64,000 nucleotides of DNA from Patescibacteria group bacterium (GCA_041665145.1 JBAYJK010000003.1:5177-69176), one strand, 5' to 3'. Numbered from the stretch's first letter, positions 4,668 to 54,438 are shown. The notes: generated from the letters alone by a model not told the origin. Numbers and translations are program-made.

Positions 4668-5176
4668 TGCTGGATTTTATCCGCAAAAGTAAATTGGTCG
4701 GATTTCTTTGGAATGCAGTATTTGATGCGCGGACATTCATAATTCTTAAATGGGTTTTTCGGGTTAAAAAAATCGGACATTCGGTTGTCGTTCATCCCGG
4801 ATTTCTTGTTTTTCATGGAGCCAATAATATTTCGGTAGGCAATAATGTCTGCCTTGCTGATGCATTGTTGAATGCCGGCTACCGGGAAGGATCAATAACT
4901 ATAGATGACTATGTTTTTTTCAGTCCCCGGGTAATGATACATGCACGAGGGCATGATTATGAACGGTTCGGAAAAGCAAGAATGGATTCGATTGTAGAAA
5001 AACCGATTCATATTAAAAAAGGTGCATGGATCGGCGCTGGCAGCATGATACTTGCCGGTGTAACTGTCGGAGAGGACAGTGTTGTTGCCGCAGGATCCGT
5101 GGTCACGAAAAATGTTCCTCCCCGATGTATTGTCGCCGGTGTTCCCGCAATGGTGATAAAAAAATTACATGAGTAA
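4667..5176 (+). CDS. Hexapeptide-repeat (left-handed beta-helix) O-acetyltransferase
   Basis: 169 aa. The tail KKGAWIGAGSMILAGVTVGEDSVVAAGSVVTKNVPPRCIVAGVPA is typical of the maltose/galactoside acetyltransferase family. The start overlaps the upstream stop (TAATG). Confidence 0.8.
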   Translation: MLDFIRKSKLVGFLWNAVFDARTFIILKWVFRVKKIGHSVVVHPGFLVFHGANNISVGNNVCLADALLNAGYREGSITIDDYVFFSPRVMIHARGHDYERFGKARMDSIVEKPIHIKKGAWIGAGSMILAGVTVGEDSVVAAGSVVTKNVPPRCIVAGVPAMVIKKLHE

Positions 5177-6050: not shown

Positions 6051-7226
6051 GGTTTGTAGGAATTTGTCGACGAGTTTTGCCCGCGTACTCCATGCCCACT
6101 TGTTTTTAAGTTTTGCGACGGTATCCTTCTGGGGCTTGAGTAATCCGAGTCTTTTGTCATTTGTCAACAGATCCACAACCGCGCCCGAAAATTTGTCGAG
6201 GTTATATGGCTCTATTTTCAGGCACCCTTCTTTGTATACATTTTTCAAAGCAGGAAGATCAAACATGACAACCGGCAAGCCTGAACAAAGTGCCTCAGCG
6301 GCAACCATGCCGTTATTGTCGTAAACCGTCGGATGAATGAACAGTCGCGATGCACCGTAGATGTGGAATTTTTCTTTTCCGTTTACATACCCCAACCACG
6401 AGATGTGCTTATCCAAACCCAAAGATGTCGCCCGAGACTTCAGGGAACTTTCAAATGCCTTTTCTCCGTTTCCGATAATGGCCAGCTTTGCCTGCGGGAC
6501 TGTATCGAGAACTTCCCTCCATATAGTAAGAAGTTTGATAATTCCCTTTTGCGGGTGCAGGCGACTACAGAACACTGCGTCGTATATCTTTGTTTGTGTC
6601 TCAGGAGTGTTACTTGTCAGCTCCGTATTCACACCTCCGTAAACGGGTAAAACATACTTTTGCTTTTTAATCGGAAAGCGCTTCAAATCAACATCGTTCG
6701 TGATGAAGCAATAATCGAAACGACTAAAAATAAGCCGAATCATCACTAATTGGTACAGGTAATATACGAGGTATTTTATCGGGGGGAATCCGTATCTTCT
6801 GACAATATTTTCAATGGGGTTCGGGATAAAGAGATACAGGCTTGCGATCCAGCGGAATTTATACTTACTTTTCAGTAAGTAAACCGGAACAACGTCCGGC
6901 CCAAAATCTGAACAGCTATAAAAATAATCACGATCGTTAATTGTGTTATTACTGAAGTACTGTTGGTAAAAGTTCCAAATATATGTGCACTCTTTTATGT
7001 GAGATCCAAAAGAAAATTTAGTAAACGGATAAGGGATTTGAACGATTGATACTTTCGTTAAATCATGAATATTTTTTTTGAAGGTTTCAGGTTCGGTGGT
7101 CAAGATAACAAAATTATATTTGTCGGAAAGCTCGTTGATAATCTCAAGTAATATCTTTGTATTACCTCCCATCGAACCGTCAGGACTCGTGTAGATTGCG
7201 CTTACGTAAAAATTCACTTTATTCAT
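6024..7226 (-). CDS. GT4-type (GT-B fold) glycosyltransferase
   Basis: 400 aa. C-terminal RLHPQKG...GNGE...YDNNGMVAAEALCSGLPVV matches the Glycos_transf_1 E-x7-E region. Confidence 0.8.
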   Translation of the reverse strand: MNKVNFYVSAIYTSPDGSMGGNTKILLEIINELSDKYNFVILTTEPETFKKNIHDLTKVSIVQIPYPFTKFSFGSHIKECTYIWNFYQQYFSNNTINDRDYFYSCSDFGPDVVPVYLLKSKYKFRWIASLYLFIPNPIENIVRRYGFPPIKYLVYYLYQLVMIRLIFSRFDYCFITNDVDLKRFPIKKQKYVLPVYGGVNTELTSNTPETQTKIYDAVFCSRLHPQKGIIKLLTIWREVLDTVPQAKLAIIGNGEKAFESSLKSRATSLGLDKHISWLGYVNGKEKFHIYGASRLFIHPTVYDNNGMVAAEALCSGLPVVMFDLPALKNVYKEGCLKIEPYNLDKFSGAVVDLLTNDKRLGLLKPQKDTVAKLKNKWAWSTRAKLVDKFLQTLDSEKGKD

Positions 7227-8071: not shown

Positions 8072-9119
8072 GTATATTTTTCGCTAACTTAATAATTTGT
8101 TGTACCCTGTTGGAATAAGTGTGATACTTTTCTACCCTGTTTTTTCCCCTGTCGGATATTTTTTTTCTCAGCTCCGGACGGTCGATGTAATACTTAATTT
8201 TATCGAACCAGTCGTCTTTTCCCGTCGCAACTATTAATTCTTCGCCTAATTTAAAATATTTTGAAATGCAGGAAACCGAATCGACAATTTCAAATCCCCC
8301 GGCTGCAGGAATCTTAAATGTCCGCTCGTTGCAGTCACCGCCGAAACGTTGTTGATAGTCTTCATGCACATTGATGGAAATTGCGGTCGAGTTATATATT
8401 TTGCGCTCGTCCGAAAGGTGCAGTTTCGGTTTCTGGATATTTCTTAATAACCCGATATTAAAATATTGTCCTGCTTTTTGCAGCAGTCCTTTATATTTAT
8501 CAAGCATTGTCCAATCTTGTCCGTAGAATTTAACGGAGTATTTGTCTTTTAGCGGCATAATGACTTCTTTAAAAAAAGAAGCCTTGCCGGGCAAGTTTGT
8601 TCCCACATAAGCAATGTCGCTCTCAAACCGCTTGTCAAACTCCGGGAAAATAACCGTTGCGTCGCACGCAAGCGGGATGGTCTCGAAATTTTTCCCGGTA
8701 ACTTTGGTAAACCCGTCCATCCTCTCATCTTCCTGTTCGACGGTGTGAAAGAAAATGTCTCCCAATAACCCGGATTGAATCTGTGCAACCTTTCCGGATT
8801 CGTCTTTCAAAGATGGGGCTTCGTTTATTCGCGCTTTAGAAATAGGAGAATTCCAAAAATCGATTTTCGTAAACAGCACCATTCCTTTTTTACGGTACTT
8901 CATGAGAAGTTCAAGATTCAAAAATTTCTGATAGTAAAAATGACTTGATGTCATAAAAATATCCGGCTGTACCCGTTCTAAAAATACCGCAAGTTTTTCA
9001 TCCTGGGTAAACGGGAAAAAACGATGCCCGAGTTTTTCGAAGGCATTTTTATATCCGTTGAAAATTGTTCGGTATGCATAGATAGTTTCGGGCGACGGTA
9101 TATGATATGCGATTTTCAT
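8058..9119 (-). CDS. CgeB-like glycosyltransferase (Glyco_trans_1_2-like C-terminus)
   Basis: 353 aa. The C-terminal NERTFKIPAAGGFEIVD...DRPELRKKISDRG resembles the CgeB/DUF3880 family. Confidence 0.6.
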   Translation of the reverse strand: MKIAYHIPSPETIYAYRTIFNGYKNAFEKLGHRFFPFTQDEKLAVFLERVQPDIFMTSSHFYYQKFLNLELLMKYRKKGMVLFTKIDFWNSPISKARINEAPSLKDESGKVAQIQSGLLGDIFFHTVEQEDERMDGFTKVTGKNFETIPLACDATVIFPEFDKRFESDIAYVGTNLPGKASFFKEVIMPLKDKYSVKFYGQDWTMLDKYKGLLQKAGQYFNIGLLRNIQKPKLHLSDERKIYNSTAISINVHEDYQQRFGGDCNERTFKIPAAGGFEIVDSVSCISKYFKLGEELIVATGKDDWFDKIKYYIDRPELRKKISDRGKNRVEKYHTYSNRVQQIIKLAKNIHDRS

Positions 9120-10807: not shown

Positions 10808-11785
10808 ATGGTTTTACGAAACACCAAAGAAATCGTCGTCACCGGGTCCATGTCGTGGGACACCATCATGGACTTCCCTTCCCGATTTGTGGACTACCTT
10901 AACCCGGAAAAACTTCACCAGATAAATGTGTCATTTGTCGTCGATAAGTTGGAAAAGCAGATCGGCGGAACGGCAACCAACATTGCATATGCGGCCGCCC
11001 AAACACTTGCCTATTTCCATAAACAAGAAAAATCTGACGGTATAAGCATTAACGTGCTCGGAGGTTTGGGGAAAGATGCGGCCGCCCACCTACGTTTCTT
11101 TAAAAAGCATAAAATAGATACTTCCCGCATCATGATCGACAGGCGGATGTACAGTGCCGCCGGCTCCGTTATTACGGATACGAAAGACAATCAGATTTGG
11201 GGTTTCTATTACGGCGCATCGGTTGCGGCCAAACGGGTTTCTTTAACGGATTTCGTGCCGAAAGAAACGATTATGATTATTTCGGCAAATCATCCCGATG
11301 CCTTTCTTCATTTTCAGGAAGAGTGTATTAAATTCCATATTCCGTATATGTATGATCCCGGCATGGCGTTGTCATGGATAACGGACAAAGATTTGACAGA
11401 GGGTGTTTTAAAGGCAACGTATTTAATAGGAAACGATTACGAAATCGCAATGGTTTTGAAGCGGATAAAGCAAACGGTTTCGTCACTCATGAATGAAGGA
11501 GTAAATATTATTACTACGTTAGGAGACAAAGGGGTGAGATATGAATCGACAACGGAGAAATATGAAATTCCCGCTGTTTCAAACATAGAAGCGGTTGACC
11601 CGACAGGAGCGGGAGACGCCTGGCGCGGAGGGTTTCTTACCGCTCTGACGAATGGAAAACCGGTTAAAGAGGCGCTGATTGTCGGTAACGCGGTTGCAAG
11701 TTTTGCCGTTGAACATTACGGCTGTGTCAATTATCATATAACGGCGAAGGAATTCGAAAAGAGGTCTCAATGTCTGAAGGTCTAA
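10808..11785 (+). CDS. PfkB-family carbohydrate/nucleoside kinase (possible adenosine kinase)
   Basis: 325 aa. It carries the PfkB signature DPTGAGDAWRGGF near the C-terminus. It lies next to ahcY. The last 7 codons and the stop are encoded by repeat R1. Confidence 0.8.
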   Translation: MVLRNTKEIVVTGSMSWDTIMDFPSRFVDYLNPEKLHQINVSFVVDKLEKQIGGTATNIAYAAAQTLAYFHKQEKSDGISINVLGGLGKDAAAHLRFFKKHKIDTSRIMIDRRMYSAAGSVITDTKDNQIWGFYYGASVAAKRVSLTDFVPKETIMIISANHPDAFLHFQEECIKFHIPYMYDPGMALSWITDKDLTEGVLKATYLIGNDYEIAMVLKRIKQTVSSLMNEGVNIITTLGDKGVRYESTTEKYEIPAVSNIEAVDPTGAGDAWRGGFLTALTNGKPVKEALIVGNAVASFAVEHYGCVNYHITAKEFEKRSQCLKV

Positions 11786-11820
11786 ATGTCTGAGAGTCCC
11801 GAGTCGCGGGTCATGGGTCT
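11764..11820. repeat. R1: GTCTRAWT 8-nt phased array (GTCT orientation only)
   Basis: Units are gtctcaat gtctgaag gtctaaat gtctgaga gtcccgag, followed by GC-rich degenerate units. The pfkB stop TAA 11783..11785 lies inside one unit. Confidence 0.85.
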
Positions 11821-11858
11821 AGTTACGCAATGAACTATTATAAATTGCAAAACACAAG

Positions 11859-13146: not shown

Positions 13147-13248
13147 AAGTTAGAAAGTTGAAAGCAGAAAGTCTGAAAGTCCGAATGTCTGAATGTCTGA
13201 ATGTCAAATTGTCGACATTAAGACTTTTAGACACTAAGACATTCAGAC
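13147..13248. repeat. R2: palindromic GTCTRAWT/AWTYAGAC element centred on GTCGAC (13211..13216)
   Basis: The left arm is gtctgaaa gtccgaat gtctgaat gtctgaat gtcaaatt. The right arm is attaagac ttttagac actaagac attcagac. It lies between ahcY and pyk. Confidence 0.85.
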
Positions 13249-13272
13249 AGGTGCATTAATGTACTTATAAGT

Positions 13273-14718: not shown

Positions 14719-14808
14719 ATGTCGCGAGTCGCGAGTCTGAATGTCTAAGTGTCTGAATGTCCATTAGTCTGTCAGACAATCAGACGCGTGACGCTCAGAC
14801 GCTTAGAC
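14713..14808. repeat. R3: palindromic GTCTRAWT/AWTYAGAC element
   Basis: The left arm is gtctaaat gtcgcgag tcgcgag tctgaat gtctaagt gtctgaat gtccatta gtct. The right arm is gtcagac aatcagac gcgtgac gctcagac gcttagac. Confidence 0.85.
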
Positions 14809-14823: not shown

Positions 14824-16653
14824 ATGAATGTTTCGAGTATTCGTAATTTTGCCATTATCGCCCATGTTGATCACGGTAAGTCTACTTTGGCTGACCGGCT
14901 TTTGGAATTAACGCATGTCGTTACCCCCGGTAAGCACGATGAACAACTCTTGGATAGAAACCCTATATCACGTGAACGAGGAATAACCATCAAACTGGCA
15001 CCGGTGACGATGAAATACAGAGCACAGTCTAAAAGCCCGCCTGCCGGCGAGGCAGGTCTCAATGTCTCAATGTCCGAAAGTCGACATTTAGACACTCAGA
15101 CATTCAGACCTTCAGATGAGTTTACTCTGAATCTTGTTGATACCCCCGGCCATGTCGATTTTTCGTATGAAGTCGAACGAACCCTGGCGTGTGTAGAGGG
15201 CGTCATTTTACTCGTTGACGCGACCCAGGGGATTCAGGCGCAAACGATTGCACATGCGTACAAAGCACTTGAACAGAACCTGACGATTATTCCCGTTGTG
15301 AACAAAATAGATATGGAAAATGCACAGGTGGATAAAACTATTGCGGAGCTTGTCGAATTCCTGGGAGTGAAACCCGAAGAAGTGTACAAAATCTCGGCCA
15401 AAACCGGCATCGGTGTACAAGAACTTCTTGATGCAGTTATCGAACAAGTACCCCCGCCGTCGGACAGCGAATACCGAAAATCGAACATAGAAACGTTGGA
15501 TCACACCAAGTGTCTGATCTTTGATTCGTACTATGATCCGCACCGCGGAGTTATTGCCTTTGCCCGGGTTTTTAACGGTGAAGTGAAAAAGAATACCAAG
15601 CTGTGGTTACAAGCTACCCAAAAATCTTTTGATGTTATGGAAGTCGGTATTTTTACGCCGGATCTTACGCCTACCGAAACATTGGAAGACGGACAAATCG
15701 GGTACATTGTGACAAACCTGAAAGATATCCATGACGTGCAGGTGGGAGATACTCTCAGCACTATTCAGCGTGATACCATGCTTTCCGGATATCGGAAAGT
15801 AAAACCGATGGTCTACGGTTCCGTGTTTCCGACGGACCCCGACGAATATATCGACTTAAAAAAATCTTTGGAAAAGTTGTATTTAAATGACGCTGCGCTG
15901 ACCTTTGAACCCATTTTCAGCAAGGCGATGGGCGGAGGTTTTCGTATCGGTTTTCTGGGACTACTGCACGCCGACGTTACGCGTGAACGACTTGAACGGG
16001 AATTCGAGCAGAGCTTGGTGCTTACGCCTCCGAAAGTGGAATATGAAAATCATGACGGAACATTTTACGAGCCGTTTGTTTCCGTAACCGTTGTCACTCC
16101 CCAACCCTACATGGGCGGTGTGATGCAGCTTTGCGAAGAATCACGGGCCAGCTATAAACATATGGATAATAAGAACCAGATTATCTTGGTTTATGAAATG
16201 CCTTTGGTGGAACTTATCGGACAGTTCTTCGACCGCTTGAAAAGTATTACGTCGGGGTACGCTTCTCTTGACTGGGAGTTTTTGGAATACCGACCGGTAC
16301 AGGCAGATTACTTGGAAATTCTTTTAAACCTTGAACCGGTGGAAGAGTTTTCCGAGATTGTGGTGCATGAGCGTGCATTCGAACGTGCCCGCGAACTTAC
16401 GAAGAAAATACATGAAATTATTCCCCGACAACAGTACGAAGTGAAAATTCAGGCGCGGTATAAAGGAAAGATTATCGCATCAGAGCGTGTTGCTCCATTT
16501 AGAAAAGATGTTACGGCCAAGCTCTACGGAGGAGACCGCACACGGAAAGACAAGTTGTTGAACAAACAGAAAAAAGGTAAAAAACTCATGAAGAATATCG
16601 GCAAGGTGGAGATTCCAAAAGAAGCATTCATCAAGCTCTTCAAGACGTCCTAA
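14824..16653 (+). CDS. lepA: Elongation factor 4 (LepA) carrying a ~27-aa repeat-derived insertion in the G domain
   Basis: 609 aa. NFAIIAHVDHGKSTL, DTPGHVDF, NKID and the conserved LepA C-terminal domain are present. The segment QSKSPPAGEAGLNVSMSESRHLDTQTFRPSDE has no counterpart in canonical LepA. Confidence 0.95.
   Translation: MNVSSIRNFAIIAHVDHGKSTLADRLLELTHVVTPGKHDEQLLDRNPISRERGITIKLAPVTMKYRAQSKSPPAGEAGLNVSMSESRHLDTQTFRPSDEFTLNLVDTPGHVDFSYEVERTLACVEGVILLVDATQGIQAQTIAHAYKALEQNLTIIPVVNKIDMENAQVDKTIAELVEFLGVKPEEVYKISAKTGIGVQELLDAVIEQVPPPSDSEYRKSNIETLDHTKCLIFDSYYDPHRGVIAFARVFNGEVKKNTKLWLQATQKSFDVMEVGIFTPDLTPTETLEDGQIGYIVTNLKDIHDVQVGDTLSTIQRDTMLSGYRKVKPMVYGSVFPTDPDEYIDLKKSLEKLYLNDAALTFEPIFSKAMGGGFRIGFLGLLHADVTRERLEREFEQSLVLTPPKVEYENHDGTFYEPFVSVTVVTPQPYMGGVMQLCEESRASYKHMDNKNQIILVYEMPLVELIGQFFDRLKSITSGYASLDWEFLEYRPVQADYLEILLNLEPVEEFSEIVVHERAFERARELTKKIHEIIPRQQYEVKIQARYKGKIIASERVAPFRKDVTAKLYGGDRTRKDKLLNKQKKGKKLMKNIGKVEIPKEAFIKLFKTS
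15056..15117. repeat. R4: palindromic GTCT/AGAC element inserted in-frame inside lepA
   Basis: The units are gtctcaat gtctcaat gtccgaaa GTCGAC atttagac actcagac attcagac cttcagat. This is the same architecture and GTCGAC centre as intergenic R2. Confidence 0.85.
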
Positions 16654-23801: not shown

Positions 23802-24394
23802 TGAAACGCGTATTTATAATTCATCGCTGGAGCGGAAGCCCGGAAAAAGATTGGCTCCCCTGGCTTGTCCGTTCGATTCAGACCTTGAGACCTTCAGACA
23901 TTCAGACGCATGACTCCTATGAAGTCTTTGTCCCTTCCATGCCCGACCCCGACGTTCCCACTATCGAGAACTGGACCACACATTTAAAACATCTGGTGGG
24001 AAAACTGTTGCCAACGGACGTTTTTATTGGCCACAGTATTGGTTGCCAGACAATTTTGCGGTACTTGGAAAAACTCCCCGCGGGTGAAAAAGCGGACAAA
24101 GTTATTCTGGTTGCACCATTTTTAACCTTAAAAGGTCTCGAGACCGAGGAAGAATTTCGTATTGCTAAACCATGGTTACGTACGCTTATCGACCTGCGCC
24201 GCATACCCGACAAAGCAAATTCCTATACCCTACTCTTTTCGGATAATGATCCGTTTGTTCCCCTGGACGAAAACGTGCAGTTGTTTAAAAAATGGATCAA
24301 TCCGGAAATTCACACACTTCACGACAAAGGTCATTTCACCCAAGATGACGGGATTGTCGAACTTCCTGAGCTCCTGAATTTTCTAAGAATTTGA
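23801..24394 (+). CDS. YdeN/RBBP9-like alpha/beta serine hydrolase with a repeat-derived insertion
   Basis: MKRVFIIHRWSGSPEKDWLPWL start, GHSIG nucleophile elbow, C-terminal DKGHF. The start ATG overlaps the alaX stop (TAATG). The track's 23738 start is an upstream in-frame extension. Confidence 0.7.
   Translation: MKRVFIIHRWSGSPEKDWLPWLVRSIQTLRPSDIQTHDSYEVFVPSMPDPDVPTIENWTTHLKHLVGKLLPTDVFIGHSIGCQTILRYLEKLPAGEKADKVILVAPFLTLKGLETEEEFRIAKPWLRTLIDLRRIPDKANSYTLLFSDNDPFVPLDENVQLFKKWINPEIHTLHDKGHFTQDDGIVELPELLNFLRI
23876..23914. repeat. R5: AGAC-orientation half element in-frame inside the hydrolase gene
   Basis: The units attcagac cttgagac cttcagac attcagac gcatgac encode IQTLRPSDIQTHD. Confidence 0.75.
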
Positions 24395-24430: not shown

Positions 24431-24497
24431 GACCCAGTTTCCGAATTGTCACCGTATGGTGTGCGTTCGAAGCAATCGCTTCGATAGGAACTGGGTC
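24431..24497. terminator. Nested stem-loop between convergent genes (possible bidirectional terminator or small structured RNA)
   Basis: The outer stem is gacccagtttcc/ggaactgggtc (11 bp, one bulged T). The inner perfect 7-bp hairpin is tcgaagc-aatc-gcttcga (24467..24484). Confidence 0.35.
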
Positions 24498-24500
24498 GAA

Positions 24501-25127
24501 CTATTTAAACACCCAGATATCTTTTTCTTTTGATTTGATAATTTTTCTGTAGATATTCCAATCTTCGGTCATCTTGTCAAAGTATCTGCGAATTGTGCCA
24601 GCTATCATGTCTGCCATTTGTACGAGCACATCTTTAGATGAGTCCCGAAACCTGATGTTCTTCATAACTGTATTGTTGGTGGAGTTCAAATGTTGGCGAA
24701 GATAGGTACTCAGTTGTGTCCGAAACGCCCGCTCACCTCTTCCATCAATGCGAATTTTAGCGTTTCTGATCGTATTATTGTTGTGTTGTAGTATCTGTCG
24801 TAGTGAGAAATTGTAGAAACTTTCTTTGCTTGTTTGTAAATAGGTACTGTAAATCTGTGGTTTGTTAATAACAATAGCTCGAATTTCATATTTGATGTCG
24901 CTAATTGCGTGAAGAAATGCTTCCCGATATGATCTACTACATCCATTAAATTTGAACTCAAATCTGTCTGATTTCTGCAATTTTTGTTTTAAGCGTTTAA
25001 TTCTGATTGCGGCTTCTTCAGCATCTAAATCATTCTTAAAGACTACCAAAGCTATAACAAAATATGGGCTTGATCCCCGTGCAATCTTAAATCCAGGATC
25101 GCCAGATTCATCTATGAAAATAATCAT
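24501..25127 (-). CDS. DUF3800-like protein
   Basis: The N-terminus MIIFIDESGDPGF is typical of DUF3800. The start is set at ATG 25127, 6 nt downstream of TACAAT (reverse complement of 25134..25139). The track's 25178 start would overlap the divergent MazG promoter. Confidence 0.65.
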   Translation of the reverse strand: MIIFIDESGDPGFKIARGSSPYFVIALVVFKNDLDAEEAAIRIKRLKQKLQKSDRFEFKFNGCSRSYREAFLHAISDIKYEIRAIVINKPQIYSTYLQTSKESFYNFSLRQILQHNNNTIRNAKIRIDGRGERAFRTQLSTYLRQHLNSTNNTVMKNIRFRDSSKDVLVQMADMIAGTIRRYFDKMTEDWNIYRKIIKSKEKDIWVFK

Positions 25128-25198
25128 GTGCTGATTGTAACGTATATAAAATAAAGGATAGAAGTGTATAAACACCAAAAGAGGTATAATTTGTTGTC

Positions 25199-25555
25199 AT
25201 GAAGAGCACAGAGTTGGCGGTCCTCACGAAAAAAATTATCGAATTCCGGGACAAACGGAATTGGAAGCAGTTTCACAATCCGAAAGATTTGGCTCTCTCC
25301 CTGGTTTTGGAAGCGGGAGAAGTAATGGAACACTTTCAATGGAAAAGCCCGCAAGAAATCGACGCGTATATCAAAACAAACAAGTCTGATATTGGCGAGG
25401 AGCTTGCAGATGTTCTCTACTGGGTTCTTTTAATGAGCCACGACTTAGACCTGGATATTGTCGAAGCTGTTGAGAAGAAAATGGAAAAAAATGAGAAGCA
25501 CTACCCTGTTGAAAAAGCTAAGGGCTCACATAAGAAATATACGGAAATAAAATAA
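25199..25555 (+). CDS. MazG-like all-alpha nucleoside triphosphate pyrophosphohydrolase
   Basis: 118 aa. FRDKRNWKQFHNPKDLALSLVLEAGEVMEHFQWK...EELADVLYWVLLMSHDLDLD...KNEKHYP matches the small MazG/YpjD-type family. Confidence 0.85.
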   Translation: MKSTELAVLTKKIIEFRDKRNWKQFHNPKDLALSLVLEAGEVMEHFQWKSPQEIDAYIKTNKSDIGEELADVLYWVLLMSHDLDLDIVEAVEKKMEKNEKHYPVEKAKGSHKKYTEIK

Positions 25556-25556
25556 C

Positions 25557-27425
25557 ATGCAACTATATTCGGGTTCTATTACCCAATTTAAAGAGGACAC
25601 AATACAGAACCAGATTGCAATTAAACTTCATAACGAATTTTTTGATTACTTTGGATACAATCCTTCAGAACCTGAGGTAAATTCATGGAGAAACTCTCTG
25701 CGTGCTGTAAAAGATGTGTTTGATGTGGCAGAATTTAACGATCATGGAGTGATTTTAGAATACCAACTACCTCTTTCTTCGAGAAGACTTGATTGTATGA
25801 TCTGTGGCCGAAACAATGAAGGCAAAGATAATGCTGTGATTATCGAGTTAAAGCAATGGGGAAAATGTGAGATCGGTACAAGCGATAAGGTGGTTACGTG
25901 GACCGGTGGTGGAAAACGTGAAGTGTTACATCCGTCAGTTCAGGTTGGGCAGTACAAAACATACTTAGAGCAAAACCAGACTGTTTTTTATGAAGAAGAT
26001 CCTATTTCACTCAGTGCATGTACCTACCTTCACAACTACGTTCTACAAAAAAGCGATTCTATATTATCAACGCAATTTAGTACTTATTTAGAGCAATACC
26101 CTTTATTTAGCAACGATGATGTTAATAACCTAAGTTCGTATTTACAAAACAAGTTAGCAAAAGGTAATGGTATGGCAGTTCTGGACAGAGTCCAAGGGAG
26201 TAAGTATGGACCAAGCAAAAAATTACTTCAACAAATAGCCAAGGTTGTTAAAGAGAATGAGCGATATACACTATTAGATACTCAGCTAATTGCCTTCGAT
26301 AAAGTGATGAATTTGGTCAAACACGGTCTGGCAAAAAAAAAGAAATCGGTTGTGATAGTGAAAGGTGGTCCGGGAACGGGGAAATCTGTTATTGCCATTA
26401 ATTTATTAGCGGAGCTATCTAGATTGGGTTTGAATACCCAGTATGCAACAGGTTCCAAAACTTTCACAGAAACTTTGCGTAAAACCATCGGGCCAGGCGG
26501 TTTTGACCAGGTGAAGTATTTCAATAGTTACACGACTGCTGATGAAAACGCAATTGATGTTCTTGTTGCAGATGAGTCGCACAGAATGAGAGTCAGCAGT
26601 AACGGCAGATTTACACCAAAGTCAAAAAGATCAGATATTCCACAAGTTGAGGAGTTAATTAGAGTTGCAAAAGTACCGGTTTTCTTTGTCGATGAAAGAC
26701 AAAATGTGCGGCCTGGTGAAATAGGCTCGGGAGATTATATTCGAGAGAATGCAGAAAAGCTTGGCTGTTCCGTTTTTGAATATCAGTTAGATATTCAATT
26801 TCGATGCCAAGGGTCTGATAAATTTGTTCAGTGGATAAATAATACGTTAGGGATTTCAAAAACAGCAGAAAAGATCTGGGATGGTGCAAAGAGTGAATTT
26901 GATTTTCAAATTATTAATTCACCTCACGAATTGTATAAGAAGATAAGAGAAAAAGACAGTAACGAAGCCAACTCAGCCCGTTTGGTTGCAGGATTTTGCT
27001 GGCCATGGAGTTTTCCCAACCCTGATGGTACCTTGGTGAAAGACGTTGTTATAGATGATTTTGCTATGAGTTGGGAAGGCAAAGAAGGTAAGGGAAAGCT
27101 CGCTCCCAATGTCCCTCCCGCTTCCCTATGGCCATTTGACCCTTCCGCGATAACACAGATAGGTAGTATTTACACTATTCAAGGTTTTGAATTCGATTAT
27201 GTGGGGGTAATATTTGGTAGAGATTTAATGTACAACTTTGAGAATAACAAATGGGAGGGGCATCCCGAAGATTCCTCAGATTCGGTAGTGAAACGGAGCA
27301 AAGAAAATTTTGTCGACTTAATAAAAAATACTTATCGTGTTTTGTTAAGCAGAGCCCTTAAGGGTTGCTATGTTTATTTTGTAGATAAAGAGACCGAAAA
27401 ATTCTTCAGGTCAAGGATGGAATAA
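25557..27425 (+). CDS. DUF2075-type ATPase/helicase with an N-terminal PD-(D/E)xK nuclease-like domain
   Basis: 622 aa. The nuclease-like motifs are E(ILEYQ)...D(RLDCMI)...ExK(IIELKQW). It has Walker A GGPGTGKS, Walker B VLVADESHRM and C-terminal YTIQGFEFDYVGVIFG / TYRVLLSRALKGCYVY blocks. The start is 1 nt after the MazG stop. Confidence 0.75.
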   Translation: MQLYSGSITQFKEDTIQNQIAIKLHNEFFDYFGYNPSEPEVNSWRNSLRAVKDVFDVAEFNDHGVILEYQLPLSSRRLDCMICGRNNEGKDNAVIIELKQWGKCEIGTSDKVVTWTGGGKREVLHPSVQVGQYKTYLEQNQTVFYEEDPISLSACTYLHNYVLQKSDSILSTQFSTYLEQYPLFSNDDVNNLSSYLQNKLAKGNGMAVLDRVQGSKYGPSKKLLQQIAKVVKENERYTLLDTQLIAFDKVMNLVKHGLAKKKKSVVIVKGGPGTGKSVIAINLLAELSRLGLNTQYATGSKTFTETLRKTIGPGGFDQVKYFNSYTTADENAIDVLVADESHRMRVSSNGRFTPKSKRSDIPQVEELIRVAKVPVFFVDERQNVRPGEIGSGDYIRENAEKLGCSVFEYQLDIQFRCQGSDKFVQWINNTLGISKTAEKIWDGAKSEFDFQIINSPHELYKKIREKDSNEANSARLVAGFCWPWSFPNPDGTLVKDVVIDDFAMSWEGKEGKGKLAPNVPPASLWPFDPSAITQIGSIYTIQGFEFDYVGVIFGRDLMYNFENNKWEGHPEDSSDSVVKRSKENFVDLIKNTYRVLLSRALKGCYVYFVDKETEKFFRSRME

Positions 27426-27666: not shown

Positions 27667-29682
27667 ATGATAGGCAAAGTAATTAATGGCTATAAGGTCG
27701 AATCTTTTATAGGCGCTGGTCAATTTGGCGAAGTATATAAAGCGTCTAAGGATGGGAAAATCTACGCTATCAAATTTATTCGCAAGAACTTTATTTATCC
27801 GGACTATCAAGATAAACGGTTTGAAAGAGAAGTCTCTGCCCTAAAACGAGTTAAGGGTAAATATACAGTCGAGATTTATGAGGATGGAGAACACACAGAA
27901 GGACAGACTCCATACAGAGCTATCGTGATGGAGCTTGTTGAAGGTAAAACGCTAAGGGAGATCAGAAATGGCGACTCTTCTCCGTGGGATATCGATAAAG
28001 CTTTATCGATAATAGTTGAAATTTTACAAGGGCTTAAGACTATTCATGATGCTGGAGTTATTCATCGAGATCTAAAACCTGAAAACATTAAGCTCACAGG
28101 CGATGGAGGTATTAAAATACTCGACTATGGCCTAGCTAGGATAATTGATTATTCTTCAATTACTCAAACCGGCCAGCCGCTTGGCACTTTCTTTTACATG
28201 TCTCCAGAACAAGCAAAAGGTGAAAAGCCAATCAGACCTGGTAGTGATTACTATTCAGTGGGGGTAATGCTCTACGAATTATTAACTGGACAAATTTTGT
28301 TTTATCCATCTACCGATGCCCAGATTATTCATAAAACAATCAATGTCAAACCGCCCTATCCTTCTTCGATCAATCCTTCTATTCCTAACTATATTGAAAA
28401 CGTGATTTTGAAGCTTCTTAACAAGGAGGTGTTCCAGCGATTTAGCTCGATTGACGATATTGTTAAAGCATTAACTCAAAAGCCAGATGAAAGTATTACC
28501 GGGGCAGCAGATAGAGTGGAGTTCTATCCTCGGGTAATACCGAACGACACAACGATTCTTGAAGATTACTTGGGACACGAATCACTTGACGGTGTTGATT
28601 TTCCGACAAACCTTCACTTCTTATATAAGAGGCTGCACTCACTTCTAAGGAGAAATACCGATGTTATGAAATTTTTCGCTGATCCAAGTACAAACAGGTT
28701 GGCGTTTACTAATTTTAGAAAAACAAAAGGACTTCGCGAACTTTCTTATGCTCCTCAAGGATACGATGCTTTGACTCCTGATATATTTGAAGAGGAAAAT
28801 TACTTGAAAGAATTTGTTTCAAAAGTAATTGAGTTTCAGGTTGGCAATGGTTGCAACATTCTAACTGCACCATTTTTCTTTTTTAATAACACTTCTGATG
28901 AGTGGTTCCCAATTAATCTAAAACTTCTTAGAGAATCAATTGATTATGTCAGGACCAAGTATCCTCAATATCAGCTGTCGGGGGCGGTTTGCACCCAGGC
29001 GGAGATCTTGTGCCGTCCAAAAGAGCGAAAGACTATAATTGAAGATTACGGACATTGTAAAACAGATTATTTGCAGTTTTTTGTTGATAAGATTTCCGAA
29101 ACCACTAACGATGCACAGCTTTATAACTTCATACTAACAGCCAAGTCTATCAAAGATTTTTCAGGAACAAAGATAATTGCTTGTCGCGTGCCAACTGTTG
29201 CGTTAGGACTATTAACAGTTGGATTTGACGCTATTACTTCAGGTTTGGGGGTAATCGATAATTTCACGAAAAGCATCATTATTAAGGACGATGAGGGAAG
29301 AATGCCCACAAGGCATTATTTTCCAGAGTTATTGAGCTGCATAATCATAAGTCCCAAAAGTAGAGCTTACCAAGATATTTTGGCGCAAGAAGAAGAAATA
29401 AAAAGAGAGTTTCCCGATATGAACATATCTCTTAGTTGTGACTGTAAAGGGTGCATCCATGATTCACTCACAGACTTTCAACGTCCGAGACGGCATTTTC
29501 TACACGCTATAAAACAGGATGTTCAAGCAATCAATAACCTTGGTTCCGCGGAAAGAAGAAAGTATTTTACTGACAGAATTAATAGAGCTTACCTTCTACA
29601 GCAAAAATTAATCGAGAGAGGTGTGAAATTGAATTCACCAGGTTATCTTCAAACTTGGAAAGAGATACTTCTCAAATTCTGA
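27667..29682 (+). CDS. Ser/Thr protein kinase fused to a C-terminal TGT/DpdA-like (tRNA-guanine transglycosylase fold) domain
   Basis: 671 aa. The kinase motifs are GAGQFGEV, YAIKF, HRDLKPENI, DYG, SPE and DYYSVG. The C-terminal ~360 aa carry FADPSTNRLAF (D339), TVGFDAITSG (D521), and CDCKGC-x13-HFLH (nt 29437..29505), which is a CxCxxC...H zinc motif like that of TGT enzymes. Confidence 0.8.
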   Translation: MIGKVINGYKVESFIGAGQFGEVYKASKDGKIYAIKFIRKNFIYPDYQDKRFEREVSALKRVKGKYTVEIYEDGEHTEGQTPYRAIVMELVEGKTLREIRNGDSSPWDIDKALSIIVEILQGLKTIHDAGVIHRDLKPENIKLTGDGGIKILDYGLARIIDYSSITQTGQPLGTFFYMSPEQAKGEKPIRPGSDYYSVGVMLYELLTGQILFYPSTDAQIIHKTINVKPPYPSSINPSIPNYIENVILKLLNKEVFQRFSSIDDIVKALTQKPDESITGAADRVEFYPRVIPNDTTILEDYLGHESLDGVDFPTNLHFLYKRLHSLLRRNTDVMKFFADPSTNRLAFTNFRKTKGLRELSYAPQGYDALTPDIFEEENYLKEFVSKVIEFQVGNGCNILTAPFFFFNNTSDEWFPINLKLLRESIDYVRTKYPQYQLSGAVCTQAEILCRPKERKTIIEDYGHCKTDYLQFFVDKISETTNDAQLYNFILTAKSIKDFSGTKIIACRVPTVALGLLTVGFDAITSGLGVIDNFTKSIIIKDDEGRMPTRHYFPELLSCIIISPKSRAYQDILAQEEEIKREFPDMNISLSCDCKGCIHDSLTDFQRPRRHFLHAIKQDVQAINNLGSAERRKYFTDRINRAYLLQQKLIERGVKLNSPGYLQTWKEILLKF

Positions 29683-30350
29683 ACAGTTGAACTTTCGTAA
29701 AGGAACAACTCTTTTGCAAATAAGCCTATAACTTCATCGTATATTGATACCAAGCTCTTTTTAAGAGGTTTGTGTTTTATCCAAATTTCGCCATTTTCCT
29801 CGTTAAATAATATTAGGCCAATACCGAATTGAGTGAGGTAGTGTTTATCAACATTCTTTTCGTATCGAGAAAGTATTGCCAAATAACATTCATCTGTATA
29901 GCTTTTATATCTTCTTGCCTGTAATATGCCTTGTTTCCAGTCTCGTAGCTTAACTTCAATAGCTACTAGCTTTTTAATAGGGTTTACAAGGGGAACATCT
30001 GTTTTGTAATAGAACTTACCGTGCTTAGAAATATAATCATCAAATGTCAAAATATTAGCAACATTACTGCCAATATTTTTTCCACCACCTGAAGCTTTGA
30101 CAATATCATTTAGGGTGAAGGCTTTATTTTGAGGGAGGGATAAATAGCTTTTAAGAGCATAGTAGTTATTTAGTGGTTTTCTATCAATTATATTTTGATT
30201 TGTAAGAAAGTTTTTAGCAAAAACTAGGTCAGCAATTCCATATCCACCAGCAAATTCCTGGACAGCTATATCAGTATTAAAATTTCGCTTAAGGCCTGAA
30301 GCTAATAACTTAACCAGTTCTGCTTCAGATTGAATTTTACTGGACATCAT
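29649..30350 (-). CDS. PD-(D/E)xK nuclease-like protein with an inserted (winged-helix-like?) segment
   Basis: 233 aa. The motifs are QEF...GIADLVF...(90 aa)...VAIEVKLRDWKQGILQARRY, i.e. an E/D...ExK...Q..R pattern. The 3' end overlaps the kinase gene by 34 nt (convergent). Confidence 0.45.
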   Translation of the reverse strand: MMSSKIQSEAELVKLLASGLKRNFNTDIAVQEFAGGYGIADLVFAKNFLTNQNIIDRKPLNNYYALKSYLSLPQNKAFTLNDIVKASGGGKNIGSNVANILTFDDYISKHGKFYYKTDVPLVNPIKKLVAIEVKLRDWKQGILQARRYKSYTDECYLAILSRYEKNVDKHYLTQFGIGLILFNEENGEIWIKHKPLKKSLVSIYDEVIGLFAKELFLYESSTVQNLRSISFQV

Positions 30351-30560
30351 ATTAAGAATAGCACAATTCGAGTTACATTAGGCAATATAATACTAAAATA
30401 ATCCTGTAAGAATATCAAGATTCTCACTGTCCGTATTCCAAAAACCTCGTACTTTCTTCGCTGTGTACTCCGGATACTCCAGCTCGCTCACCTAATCAAT
30501 TCATCCAATTGTTTGAGGATAATTTTAATTAATTAACTTCTTTGTTATACTATTTTTAAT

Positions 30561-30953
30561 ATGAAATACTTTTTACCCCTCTTAACCCTTCTCTTTTTCG
30601 TAGTTGCCTTTGCGTTTCCGGTGACGACGCTTGCCTGGTTGCAGACGTATGAGGTTGGGCCGACTCGCGTATATGGATTTTGGCCGGGACTGATGCATGG
30701 GTTTATCGCACCCTTTGCTCTTATCGGACAATTGTTTGACAACACCATTGTGCTGTATTCATCAGTTAATAACGGCTTCTGGTACAACCTTGGATTCTTA
30801 CTCGGGATTTCCTGTATTATCGGCGGTGGTTCAAAAGGCACCTGTATAAAACAGAAAAAAGACGACGATGAAAAAAAGTTTGTGGCATTTCTGAGGACCA
30901 TAGGAATTATTGCCTTTTTATCTGCAATTGTGAATAAATGGGGGAAGAAATAA
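30561..30953 (+). CDS. Small membrane protein, unknown function
   Basis: 130 aa with 3-4 hydrophobic helices. TATACT lies 9 nt upstream of the ATG. It was chosen over the antisense 30545..30901 ORF because of the helix pattern and the promoter. Confidence 0.45.
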   Translation: MKYFLPLLTLLFFVVAFAFPVTTLAWLQTYEVGPTRVYGFWPGLMHGFIAPFALIGQLFDNTIVLYSSVNNGFWYNLGFLLGISCIIGGGSKGTCIKQKKDDDEKKFVAFLRTIGIIAFLSAIVNKWGKK

Positions 30954-30954
30954 C

Positions 30955-31054
30955 GTCGCGAGGCAAAATGTCTGATTGTCTAAAGCTATGCGTCTAATTG
31001 TCTGAGTAATATACGTCTGAGAGTCTCAATGTCTGATTGTCTGAATGTCTCAAT
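30955..31054. repeat. R6: GTCT-orientation array (left arm of a split palindrome around 31060..31422)
   Basis: The units are gtcgcgag...gtctgatt gtctaaag...gtctaatt gtctgagt...gtctgaga gtctcaat gtctgatt gtctgaat gtctcaat. Confidence 0.85.
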
Positions 31055-31059
31055 ACCCC

Positions 31060-31422
31060 TCAATGCGCGAGGTACTTTATGAACCTTGAAAGCTTTACTG
31101 AAATACTGATTAACCGTTTTCTCAACTGATCATATGCTTCCGCATTTATATATGAAAGCTTATGAGCGACCAAAAGCTGGGTTCGTACTTCACCCGCGGA
31201 GCCTTTGGCAATATAAAGAAATCTTTTAAAATCCATATCTGATTCTCTTTCAAATCCTTCGGATATATTGGACGGAATTGAAACTGCTGCCCTCCGTATT
31301 TGATCGGTTAATCCATAATCTTTGTGAAAGGAGGTGTAATTGGTTATTGAGTAAACTTTGCCTACAAGTTCAATAGCCTCTTTCCAGATACTAAGATCCT
31401 CAAAGTAACGAATAGTCGGCAT
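31060..31422 (-). CDS. Four-helix-bundle protein (23S rRNA intervening-sequence protein family)
   Basis: 120 aa. FEDLSIWKEAIEL...DQIRRAAVSIPSNISEGFER...FLYIAKGSAGEVRTQL is the family consensus pattern. Confidence 0.85.
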   Translation of the reverse strand: MPTIRYFEDLSIWKEAIELVGKVYSITNYTSFHKDYGLTDQIRRAAVSIPSNISEGFERESDMDFKRFLYIAKGSAGEVRTQLLVAHKLSYINAEAYDQLRKRLISISVKLSRFIKYLAH

Positions 31423-31473
31423 ATGTTTATCTAAGCAGAATCGTCACAATATACAACGGCTTATAAGCATCAC

Positions 31474-31569
31474 ATATCGACATTTAGACACTTAGACAAT
31501 CAGACAATTAGACTCTTTGACACTCAGACACTTGGACAATCAGACAATCAGACTTTGTGACATTTAGAC
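31474..31569. repeat. R7: twelve perfectly phased AWTYAGAC 8-mers (right arm of the split palindrome)
   Basis: The units are atatcgac atttagac acttagac aatcagac aattagac tctttgac actcagac acttggac aatcagac aatcagac tttgtgac atttagac. Confidence 0.9.
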
Positions 31570-31598
31570 TCTTGAGTAATTTTTGTTACAATGTTCTC

Positions 31599-32429
31599 GT
31601 GCGCAACTTATTTTTTTCTGACCAAGTAAAAAAACTTGCTCCCCTCCTTATTATCCAAGTGGCGTTAGTCGCCGTAGTTATCATGACCGGATTGAATGAG
31701 AAACGGCTCAGTTCGTCTTCCAAGGCATCCGGTGTCGACTGCCCCCCGTACTCCGAGTCCCAGGGCACGTGGTGCGATTACCGGCATACGACGGACGAGA
31801 ACAACCGGGATGCTCCTGTTCTCAATCCGAACTATTTGGATACGTACAACGACTGTTGGGATAAATGCGTGAAGCTCGACACTACTCAGTGCAATGGCGT
31901 GTGTCACTACGGAAGCGCTACCGTGTGTGTGCAAGAAGGTGTTTGGGCAGCAAATGCAACCCAGTGTAGCTATATCTGTAACTGGGCATGTTGTGGAGGA
32001 AAGCCCAAGATTTCCGCCTGTACCGGCGGCCCGGTTGAACCGATAGCAACAAGAGCGCCGCAACAGCCGACAACGCCTCCAGCTCAACCTACCCAGCCTC
32101 CCTATGTGCCGCCGACACAGCCGCCGTATGTTCCTCCCGTTCAGCCGACTACCCCACCGAGAATTACTATAGTCCAGCCTTCCACGCCTCCTCCCACCAG
32201 CATTCCTCAGGGAAACATCGACTTCAAACAGCTTGACCAGTATGCAAATCAGCCCACACAAAGTGTAGCTCCCCAGCAGAATACCGGTGACTTTTTAAGC
32301 GGAACGTCTGATTTTGTAAACGGAGTCGGGTCGCGCATTGCATTTGAGGCGAACCTGAACTCCAAACGCCTGTGGTACCTGCTGCAGGGAATCTGGTATA
32401 CCGTCAGTAAACCCTTCCTCAAACCGTAA
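31599..32429 (+). CDS. Membrane-anchored Cys-rich / Pro-rich secreted protein
   Basis: It has a TM anchor LAPLLIIQVALVAVVIMTGL, a Cys-rich ~100-aa domain, then PTQPPYVPPTQPPYVPPVQP repeats. The start is set at GTG 31599, 6 nt after TACAAT 31587..31592. The track start 31557 lies inside R7. Confidence 0.5.
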   Translation: MRNLFFSDQVKKLAPLLIIQVALVAVVIMTGLNEKRLSSSSKASGVDCPPYSESQGTWCDYRHTTDENNRDAPVLNPNYLDTYNDCWDKCVKLDTTQCNGVCHYGSATVCVQEGVWAANATQCSYICNWACCGGKPKISACTGGPVEPIATRAPQQPTTPPAQPTQPPYVPPTQPPYVPPVQPTTPPRITIVQPSTPPPTSIPQGNIDFKQLDQYANQPTQSVAPQQNTGDFLSGTSDFVNGVGSRIAFEANLNSKRLWYLLQGIWYTVSKPFLKP

Positions 32430-33986: not shown

Positions 33987-34100
33987 GTCATGGATCACGA
34001 GTCACACGTCTAATTGTCTCAATGTCTGAATGTCTGAGCGTCACGAGTCGAGAGTCACGCGTCTCAATGTCAGAATGTCTGAAAGTCTAAATGTCTAATT
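33987..34100. repeat. R8: long GTCT-orientation array between convergent genes
   Basis: The units are gtcatgga tcacgag tcacac gtctaatt gtctcaat gtctgaat gtctgagc gtcacgag tcgagag tcacgc gtctcaat gtcagaat gtctgaaa gtctaaat gtctaatt. The last unit supplies the stop of 34095..34505. Confidence 0.85.
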
Positions 34101-37896: not shown

Positions 37897-37987
37897 GTCT
37901 AAATGTCTAAATGTCTAAGTGTCTAAGTGTCTAAGTGTCTCGGTATTTCTCAGACCTTAAGACATTCGGACAATTAGACCTTCTGAC
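37897..37987. repeat. R9: palindromic GTCTRAWT/AWTYAGAC element between ppa and gyrA
   Basis: The left arm is gtctaaat x2, gtctaagt x3, gtctcggt. The right arm is (ctc)agac cttaagac attcggac aattagac cttctgac. Confidence 0.9.
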
Positions 37988-54354: not shown

Positions 54355-54438
54355 GTTCACCTGTCACATGTCGCGCGTCACGGGTCACGAGTCTAAGAGT
54401 CTGAATGTCTGAATGTCTGAATGTCTAAGTGTCTAGGG
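54355..54438. repeat. R10: GTCT-orientation array between the NUDIX gene and rarA
   Basis: The units are gtcacat gtcgcgc gtcacgg gtcacga gtctaaga gtctgaat x3 gtctaagt gtctaggg. The last unit supplies the NUDIX stop codon (reverse complement of CTA 54433..54435). Confidence 0.9.

Follow-up and report, generated by a model that had tools for sequence, protein, structure and literature searches.

Four-helix-bundle proteins of the PF05635 family are, to our knowledge, very numerous and have no assigned function outside diversity-generating retroelements (DGRs), and the only context of their genes that we know to have been studied besides DGRs is the rRNA intervening sequence (IVS). The DGR-related protein bAvd is a basic pentamer of the four-helix-bundle fold and binds nucleic acid; we know of no DGR in which the avd gene has inverted tandem arrays at both sides.

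Rickettsia palindromic elements (RPE) are palindromic repeats located in frame in protein genes at permissive surface loops. REP sequences and REPINs with their RAYT genes were reportedly described by Nunvar in 2010 and by Bertels and Rainey in 2011, and the heptanucleotide arrays of cyanobacteria (STRR) are said to have been described by Mazel in 1990. STRR resemble the arrays examined here in being intergenic, lineage-specific and composed of 7-nt tandem units. We are aware of no reported link between STRR and PF05635 genes.

One published PF05635 setting is the 23S IVS of Coxiella, in which an S23p ORF of this family lies in a loop whose stem consists of terminal inverted repeats and is cut by RNase III, and in which three to four tandem GACAGAT heptamers, variable in copy number between strains, lie upstream of the ORF in the 5' arm (PMC4990558). 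In Xanthomonas the homologue assembles into a pentameric toroid (PMC4990558). Other genes of the family are interleaved in cas operons (PMC3936711), are found in 16S and 23S rRNA insertions of CPR bacteria (bioRxiv 10.1101/2024.02.27.582315) or lie between gmk and nadD in Flavobacterium columnare (PMC5524665), and Avd of DGRs is listed under PF05635 (PMC10053308). Terminal inverted repeats made of tandem subrepeats are known from the Drosophila foldback elements FB and Galileo (PMC3688188).

A four-helix-bundle gene between inverted arrays

The locus described here belongs to a stretch of 64,000 nucleotides from a Patescibacteria group (CPR) bacterium placed near Roizmanbacteria, which was analysed as a whole and is referred to as the window. 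Its features are the following.

30955..31054, plus strand: left arm, built of GTC-core units that fall into three phase blocks; located 3' of the minus-strand gene
31060..31422, minus strand: four-helix-bundle protein gene (PF05635 / TIGR02436), 120 aa, from an ORF call and profile matches
31423..31477, minus strand: spacer from the start codon to the right arm, 55 nt, partly conserved in alignment with the relative L085
31478..31573, plus strand: right arm, twelve NNNNAGAC-type 8-mers in perfect 8-nt phase; located 5' of the minus-strand gene
31563..31592, plus strand: promoter-like site of the downstream Cys-rich gene, a TG-extended TACAAT with its first hexamer inside the last right-arm unit

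A first-pass annotation of this DNA had assigned the 363-nt minus-strand gene to the four-helix-bundle family of 23S rRNA IVSs, and profile searches bear this out. The product matches PF05635 (Pfam) at E=1.3e-38, with 131.9 bits against a cut-off of 33.8 and residues 8-112 aligned to positions 1-105 of a profile of 106, that is, over the full domain; TIGR02436 ("four helix bundle protein") is matched at E=2.4e-37 (127.5 bits, cut-off 24) and the solved structure 2gsc (XCC0516) at E=5.5e-23 (PDB). Five chains are present in the PDB entries 2gsc and 2rld, both of four-helix-bundle homologues, and the predicted pI of the window protein is 9.3. PF05635 is the sole Pfam match of the gene, which differs in this from the Y1 (IS200/IS605-like) transposase genes of REPIN/RAYT systems. 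Avd shares a homologous fold with the product, but no reverse transcriptase (RVT) domain and no template/variable repeat pair of DGR type occur within 10 kb, where the repeats are 8-mer arrays only; recombinase, transposase and invertase genes are likewise absent from the genes called within 10 kb on either side.

The same annotation described a left GTCT array of about 100 nt, which is present at 30955-31054 although it is interrupted twice rather than continuous, its three phase blocks comprising units at 30970/30978, at 30992/31000 and five perfectly phased ones at 31015-31050. Nine of its units are exact GTCT and an outer one is GTCG; the outermost element is the 7-mer GTCGCGA, followed by GTCTNNNN 8-mers. 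The right arm was described correctly: it is made of twelve perfectly phased AGAC-orientation 8-mers, eight exact and four with one mismatch (CGAC, TGAC, GGAC, TGAC), and starts ...ATATCGAC. The gene does not sit exactly in the centre, as had been claimed, the gap from the stop codon to the left arm being 5 nt and that from the start codon to the right arm 55 nt. For the pattern GTCTN4GTCTN4GTCT, shuffles lead one to expect 0.01 occurrences; the window has 24.

Complementarity between the arms amounts to 72-83% in many registers (best, 40 nt at 83%), and their alignment gives 75 Watson-Crick pairs over ~99 columns. A fold prediction of the region, proposed as a check on the IVS-like topology, was run on 30950-31580; the two arms pair in the fold of each strand (-182.2 kcal/mol at z -5.0 for one, -174.3 kcal/mol at z -4.7 for the other). 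The minimum free energy folds of both strands thus place the ORF in the loop of a stem-loop closed by complementary termini, like the PF05635 ORF (S23p/IVP) of the 23S rRNA IVSs of Coxiella burnetii, Leptospira, Brucella and Xanthomonas. Folded singly, the arms have less structure than their shuffles (z between +1.0 and +3.0), the left arm scoring z +1.0 and the right arm, on the plus strand, folding worse than all 200 shuffles (z +3.0). In these models each arm is unstructured alone and can pair only with its partner arm.

Several features set the cassette apart from rRNA IVSs. It lies outside any rRNA gene: the 64-kb window contains no rRNA, its Rfam matches being three tRNAs and a DUF3800-IX RNA only, and the neighbouring genes are protein-coding. 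Its arms of ~100 nt compare with a stem of 28 bp in the rRNA IVS and are built from a genome-dispersed repeat family, and cutting by RNase III is known from the Coxiella precedent only.

The 55-nt spacer, partly conserved between the window and L085 (TCGAWAT..TGATGYTTATA..GTTG..TGCTTARAT..TATG), may serve the four-helix-bundle gene as an extended -10 promoter or as its 5' UTR. A scan of the window and L085, arms included, predicted no canonical sigma-70 promoter for the gene and the conserved TGnTTATA motif alone is present; for this reason we infer, rather than report, a promoter role of the spacer. On the other side of the right arm, the element is bounded by the motif TTTGYTACAAT, which is conserved in L085 and in a second relative, L086.

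Arms accompany the gene across the family

The window protein was compared with the loci of its closest homologues (80 loci, 43-56% identity, one genome per GTDB species), of which 78 were analysed for arrays; they belong to Bacteroidota, Chloroflexota, Nitrospirota, Ignavibacteria, Zixibacteria, Saccharibacteria and others. The family is larger than this sample, one homologue search having returned 2,360 proteins at E <=1e-20. According to Tandem Repeats Finder, 72 of the 78 loci have an array of period 7-9 within 350 nt of the gene and 40 have one on both sides. Array density is 2.31/kb near the gene and 0.157/kb elsewhere in the loci, or, counting intergenic DNA only, 7.56/kb against 0.62/kb (~12-fold). 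When the two 200-nt flanks were aligned as inverted repeats, a local score of >=30 was reached in 70% of 77 loci, compared with 0.4% of 561 random 350-nt intervals from the same loci.

Treating the 78 loci as independent samples was abandoned since many of them are syntenic; they were collapsed to 42 synteny groups, taken as independent contexts, and the statistics were recomputed per group. An array lies beside the gene in 42/42 groups and on both sides in 30/42, the inverted-repeat score is >=30 in 34/41, and the inverted score exceeds the direct one in 32 groups against 8 (Wilcoxon p=0.002). The gene-between-inverted-arrays layout is therefore a family-wide property of PF05635 genes, with a repeat unit that is specific to each lineage, and a functional link between gene and arms, raised in the first-pass annotation, gains support. 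The expectation that other four-helix-bundle genes would have GTCT/AGAC arms held for the arms but not for the unit: window-type arrays are absent from all 80 homologue loci, where the 7-9-nt units are instead GAAGGCGC, GGGCTAA, GTTGGCAG, TTCCAAA, GTTCAAAC, GGAGATA, TGGTTTC and others, so that the conserved feature is the architecture and not the sequence. Inverted tandem-repeat arms as a family-wide trait outside rRNA were not found described in open-access full text (a search outside which most subscription journals fall), and the architecture appears to be undescribed so far.

Because the layout recurs in 42 independent settings across many phyla, the gene seems to form a single conserved unit with its arms, and chance is a poor account of their association. 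The opposite reading, in which the two arrays are independent, or are terminators of the neighbouring genes, and flank this gene by chance, is extremely improbable. It could appeal to the one-orientation arrays that occur alone in the genome (34008-34096, 54364-54434 and 11764-11822), but array enrichment is 12- to 15-fold across the family, the L085 orthologue has had its two arms exchanged together (see below), and a consensus scan of 30400-32000 detected no terminator-like sites. As each arm is under-structured when folded alone, the two arrays do not represent two independent terminators. The outcome that would have spoken against a gene-arm link, namely that other four-helix-bundle genes are never flanked and the two arrays behave as independent terminators, is contradicted by the flanking arrays of those other genes and by the z of +1 to +3 of the lone arms.

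None of the 27 homologue loci scanned for rRNA genes (out of 78) contains one. Cassettes are placed inside operons, the two largest groups being sufB-[4HB]-sufC-sufD in Bacteroidota and tkt-rpiB-[4HB]-tal/pgi in Chloroflexota (4HB, the four-helix-bundle gene). The upstream neighbour is co-oriented with the gene in 38/40 groups against a baseline of 80% (p=0.008) and both neighbours are in 30/38 (p=0.08); read-through transcripts from a co-oriented upstream neighbour would contain both arms. The window gene is antisense to both neighbours, an arrangement seen in only 2/42 groups, and consequently its own mRNA need not include both arms.

Arms are polar in composition, with G>C in 70% of 5' arms and C>G in 81% of 3' arms, a polarity that holds on either strand because the structure is palindromic. 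Mismatches between arms carry no strand-specific G:U signature (127 sense, 151 antisense, 331 other); with no G:U excess on the sense strand, the complementarity could stem from a generating mechanism at the DNA level and not from selection on an RNA stem. Short tandem repeats of variable copy number, which in the Coxiella IVS are the heptamers of the 5' arm, have their counterpart in the 7-9-nt arrays of four-helix-bundle loci: 8-mers in the window, 7-mers in L085, and arrays that differ by whole-unit indels between the near-identical loci L031 and L043.

Two apparent patterns were set aside. Arms seemed to travel with the gene across phyla, but the pairs concerned (L031/L043, L025/L078, L048/L066) are mislabelled syntenic close relatives with flanks of 74-97% DNA identity, and a correlation between protein identity and arm unit was discarded as it is confounded by host relatedness. 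A correspondence of five units per arm with the pentamer was dropped, the distribution of unit counts being dominated by the detection threshold.

The dispersed repeat family of the window

At least eight further sites in the 64-kb window carry the repeat family of the arms, a GTC-core 7/8-mer family dispersed in this genome. The sites are listed below; gene-less palindromes are given without strand.

11764..11822, plus strand: one-orientation GTCT array, then GTCNCGN 7-mers
13147..13249: gene-less palindrome of GTCT units, a GTCGAC centre and AGAC units; fold -37.9 kcal/mol, z -6.8
14721..14808: gene-less palindrome with outer GTCGCGA 7-mers; fold z -3.3
15027..15125, plus strand: palindromic element in frame in lepA, adding 33 codons
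23880..23907, plus strand: four AGAC 8-mers in frame inside a serine-hydrolase ORF
34008..34096, plus strand: one-orientation GTCT array, two 8-mer blocks split by GTCNCGN 7-mers, after a Mur-ligase gene
37897..37987: gene-less palindrome with an 11-nt loop; fold z -4.9
54364..54434, plus strand: one-orientation composite array, 7-mers GTCACAT/GTCGCGC/GTCACGG/GTCACGA, then six GTCT 8-mers

The arrays are composite, GC-rich 7-mers (GTCNCGN) abutting AT-rich 8-mers (GTCTNAWT). Unlike the lone arms of the four-helix-bundle locus, the intact palindromes of the window fold at z -3.3 to -6.8, and two of the gene-less ones have a GTCGAC centre. No degenerate remnants of a four-helix-bundle gene were found beside the gene-less palindromes; weak matches at 28508-28639 are probably due to chance. 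The lepA insert is missing from LepA of the relative L083; it resembles RPEs in being an in-frame palindromic insert, but the two have no sequence relationship, RPEs being neither octamer arrays nor tied to a four-helix-bundle gene. The serine-hydrolase orthologue of the relative L082 has a 7-mer array at the same codon position, and L085 also has an array at the position matching window 34008..34096. In the survey, distant arrays share the unit of the local four-helix-bundle arms in 26% of cases within a locus and in 4% across loci (p=5e-6), so the derivation of the window's arms from a dispersed local family is not unique.

These observations allow for a trans-acting partner similar to RAYT/REPIN, that is, a four-helix-bundle protein that binds or maintains 7-9-nt arrays across the genome, with the gene-bearing copy as master and with gene-less palindromes, half arrays, rRNA IVSs and in-frame inserts as non-autonomous derivatives that survive at permissive sites. 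As in REPIN/RAYT systems, a single-copy gene is flanked by an inverted repeat that is also scattered as intergenic palindromes and belongs to a lineage-specific family. We regard this explanation as rather unlikely. Apart from the shared unit family, the within-locus match of distant arrays and the in-frame elements in lepA and the hydrolase, it draws on the inward-facing G-rich strand of both arms, on the pentameric toroids formed by homologues (PMC4990558; five chains in 2gsc and 2rld) together with nucleic acid binding by Avd, and on an array density of 0.23-0.45/kb in the window and L085, compared with 0-0.1/kb in fragments of relatives with no four-helix-bundle gene in view, a contrast that rests on small genome fragments. 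It has to contend with several facts: neither recombinase nor reverse transcriptase nor transposase genes occur in the 10 kb to each side; the many genomes, such as those with the Bacteroidota suf-operon copies, that have arms but few dispersed arrays; the mislabelling behind the apparent cross-phylum sharing of arms; and the lack of a clear target-site duplication between filled (window, L085) and empty (L086) sites, although their junctions are too diverged for a firm comparison. The systems also differ in that the window gene encodes a 120-aa helical bundle, and not a Y1 transposase, and in that its repeats are tandem 7-9-nt arrays instead of single hairpins of 20-40 nt. We know of no catalytic activity for a 120-aa helical bundle and, unlike for RAYT, of no mobilisation activity for repeats linked to four-helix-bundle genes. 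Foldback transposons and MITEs offer a further parallel, with long inverted arms of short tandem repeats, an optional coding centre and gene-less palindromic copies, but FB and Galileo are eukaryotic and depend on a transposase, and none occurs within 10 kb of the gene on either side.

In its most general form, which we consider tentative and on balance improbable, the idea is that PF05635 proteins are dedicated partners of a widespread and unrecognised class of 7-9-nt tandem-repeat foldback elements. If this were true, the pentameric toroid would bind periodic ssRNA or ssDNA units flanking its own gene, the same arrays would spread or persist elsewhere as gene-less palindromes, and rRNA IVSs, intra-operonic cassettes (sufB-4HB-sufC) and in-frame LepA inserts would be one element type, in a partnership analogous to RAYT/REPIN that does without a transposase.

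Orthologous sites in relatives

Relatives were located through the neighbouring Mur-ligase-like and Cys-rich genes; the Cys-rich protein has only five homologues among 5.8 billion sequences, and a metagenome scan with this protein as query returned no loci. In L085, whose Mur ligase is 66% identical, a 120-aa PF05635 gene lies directly upstream of the conserved TTTGTTACAATGTTCTCGTG promoter region. Its product is 63% identical to the window protein, the next best match in the database of 5.8 billion sequences reaching <=60%. In L085 the arms consist of ATCNNNN/NNNNGAT 7-mers with a mutual complementarity of 73-77%, and in alignments of the window with L085 the gene matches on the minus strand and the flanks on the plus strand, showing that the cassette is flipped. 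L086 has an empty site: the orthologue of a 130-aa membrane protein stops 30 nt short of the Cys-rich gene, and arms and gene are missing together, which answers a comparison with gene-less orthologous loci that had been proposed. L082 and L087 have different neighbours and no arms. None of the four relatives available has an intact GTCT/AGAC palindrome without a gene at this site. The highest Mur-ligase identity is that between L086 and L082 (74%); both the window and L085 fall outside this pair.

The alignments show the cassette as orthologous to the L085 copy, inverted relative to its flanks and with both arms replaced in concert. The most parsimonious history would start from an ancestor that had the cassette, followed by a single inversion, a joint turnover of the two arms and a single loss of the unit as a whole; this history and the orthology of window and L085 rest on best-match identities and shared position, not on phylogeny.

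The first-pass annotation had suggested that a palindrome of the genome's repeat family was there first and received the gene cassette in its middle. The comparison with relatives disfavours this origin, which now appears quite unlikely. Intact gene-less palindromes do exist, two of them with the GTCGAC centre, and the right arm begins CGAC like their right halves; but the TCGA at the inner end of that arm is part of the leader conserved with L085, which reads ATCGAAAT, and the inner end of the left arm (GTCTCAAT ACCCC TCA) has no GTCG half-site. Moreover, the orthologous L085 cassette has different, 7-mer arms at the same site, the empty site of L086 has no palindrome, and arms accompany the gene in 42 independent contexts, often where dispersed palindromes are rare.

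The flip of the gene between window and L085, together with arms that form long inverted repeats, would also be compatible with reversible DNA inversion through the arms, by which the orientation and expression of the gene would be switched as in phase variation. This is very unlikely: orientation is kept in every other syntenic pair among the 78 loci, no invertase gene occurs within 10 kb on either side, and a single flip since the divergence of lineages with ~66% protein identity is a rare event and does not amount to a switch.

A proposed IVS-type cassette outside rRNA

The reading that we prefer, with somewhat better than even confidence and by analogy with rRNA IVSs, is that the locus is a complete IVS-type cassette outside rRNA, composed of a PF05635 gene, a short conserved leader and complementary arrays, whose transcripts would be folded and processed by RNase III. 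According to the fold models, transcription through the region on either strand would allow the arms to close an imperfect duplex of ~90-100 bp with the ORF in its loop. RNase III would cut this stem, as it does in 23S rRNA IVSs, and the cut would separate the cassette RNA from neighbouring transcripts, thereby insulating it, and define the ends of the four-helix-bundle RNA. The protein, which is basic and forms pentamers, probably binds the periodic units when single-stranded, and the inversion between window and L085 may have arisen by recombination between the arms.

The survey indicates that IVS anatomy, an ORF in a loop closed by 7-9-nt arrays, is the normal context of PF05635 genes outside rRNA, in housekeeping operons as well as in a CPR genome. 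What was an rRNA curiosity would become a general element type that can be tested in cultivable bacteria, and that may account for the enigmatic short tandem arrays of particular lineages and for assemblies that break at such loci.

Considered as a candidate substrate of RNase III, the duplex of the window is imperfect, with ~76% of its positions paired.

Repeat Arrays within Coding Sequences

Members of the GTCT/AGAC repeat family of the window also occur inside two protein-coding genes, in frame with the host ORF:

23880-23907, AGAC 8-mer array, in frame within a serine hydrolase ORF
15027-15125, palindromic GTCT/AGAC element, in-frame insertion in lepA (14824-16653, plus strand)

The serine hydrolase orthologue of the relative L082 carries a 7-mer array (GACCCGN, 5050-5080) at the codon position that is occupied by AGAC 8-mers in the window. 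This conserved coding site has thus undergone a switch of array type. The lepA element contributes 33 residues (RAQSKSPPAGEAGLNVSMSESRHLDTQTFRPSD) directly N-terminal to the DTPGH motif, and these residues are missing from the LepA protein of the relative L083; as an in-frame palindrome it resembles the Rickettsia palindromic elements. The lepA coding sequence of L083, a more distant relative, holds a 7-mer tandem array of its own (AAGATCC, 4.3 copies, 8549-8578), at a different position from the insert of the window.

Array Size and Unit Type between Genes

The array located 3' of the Mur-ligase gene (34008-34096), whose final unit overlaps the convergent gene's stop codon, is found at the same place in L085 (4177-4221), the relative with an orthologous four-helix-bundle (4HB) cassette, whereas only one or two units are present at this site in L082 (about 9640; GTCTATTT) and in L086, a relative with an empty cassette site (about 2423; CGCTTAAA, twice). 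Such size differences at a single site suggest in-place expansion and contraction of the array.

GC-rich 7-mers (GTCGCGA, GTCACGA, GTCACGG and similar) adjoin AT-rich GTCT 8-mers in the window and resemble the arms of the cassette in L085, which are of the ATCACGG type. In the window, such 7-mers lie at:

11796-11822
14721-14734
34036-34060
54364-54390

Surroundings of the 4HB Cassette

The region directly upstream of the cassette may represent a defence-type island and includes:

24431-24501, plus strand, Rfam DUF3800-IX RNA (63 bits), adjoining the DUF3800 gene
24501-25178, minus strand, DUF3800 gene
25199-27425, MazG-like gene and Schlafen-group-3-like helicase, after the DUF3800 gene
27667-29682, Ser/Thr kinase whose long C-terminal region is uncharacterised
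29649-30350, unannotated 233-aa ORF

On the antisense strand of the kinase gene (28508-28639, minus), several 4HB homologues match weakly by tblastn (best E=0.007 over 38 aa), probably by chance.

On the other side, the promoter-like site of the downstream Cys-rich gene (TG-extended TACAAT, 31563-31592) takes its -35-like hexamer from the final unit of the right arm. The GTG start codon of this gene (31599) is only 6 nt past the -10 element, and its mRNA may therefore be leaderless or nearly so.

4HB Cassettes and Arrays in Other Genomes

Across families, cassettes of this type reside stably in housekeeping operons: they are flanked by sufB and sufC in 16 Bacteroidota loci (e.g., L005, 4491-8479), and by rpiB and a tal/pgi fusion gene in eight Chloroflexota loci (e.g., L041, 3268-9268). 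The locus L031 contains a partial second copy of the 4HB 3' end and arm (2168-2662), which is flanked by arrays and shares 90% identity with positions 6197-6425 of locus L043; decayed cassettes may thus account for some gene-less arrays. Among the protein database matches, many contigs with close 4HB homologues are just 0.6-1.5 kb long, which is consistent with assembly breaks at the flanking repeat arrays.
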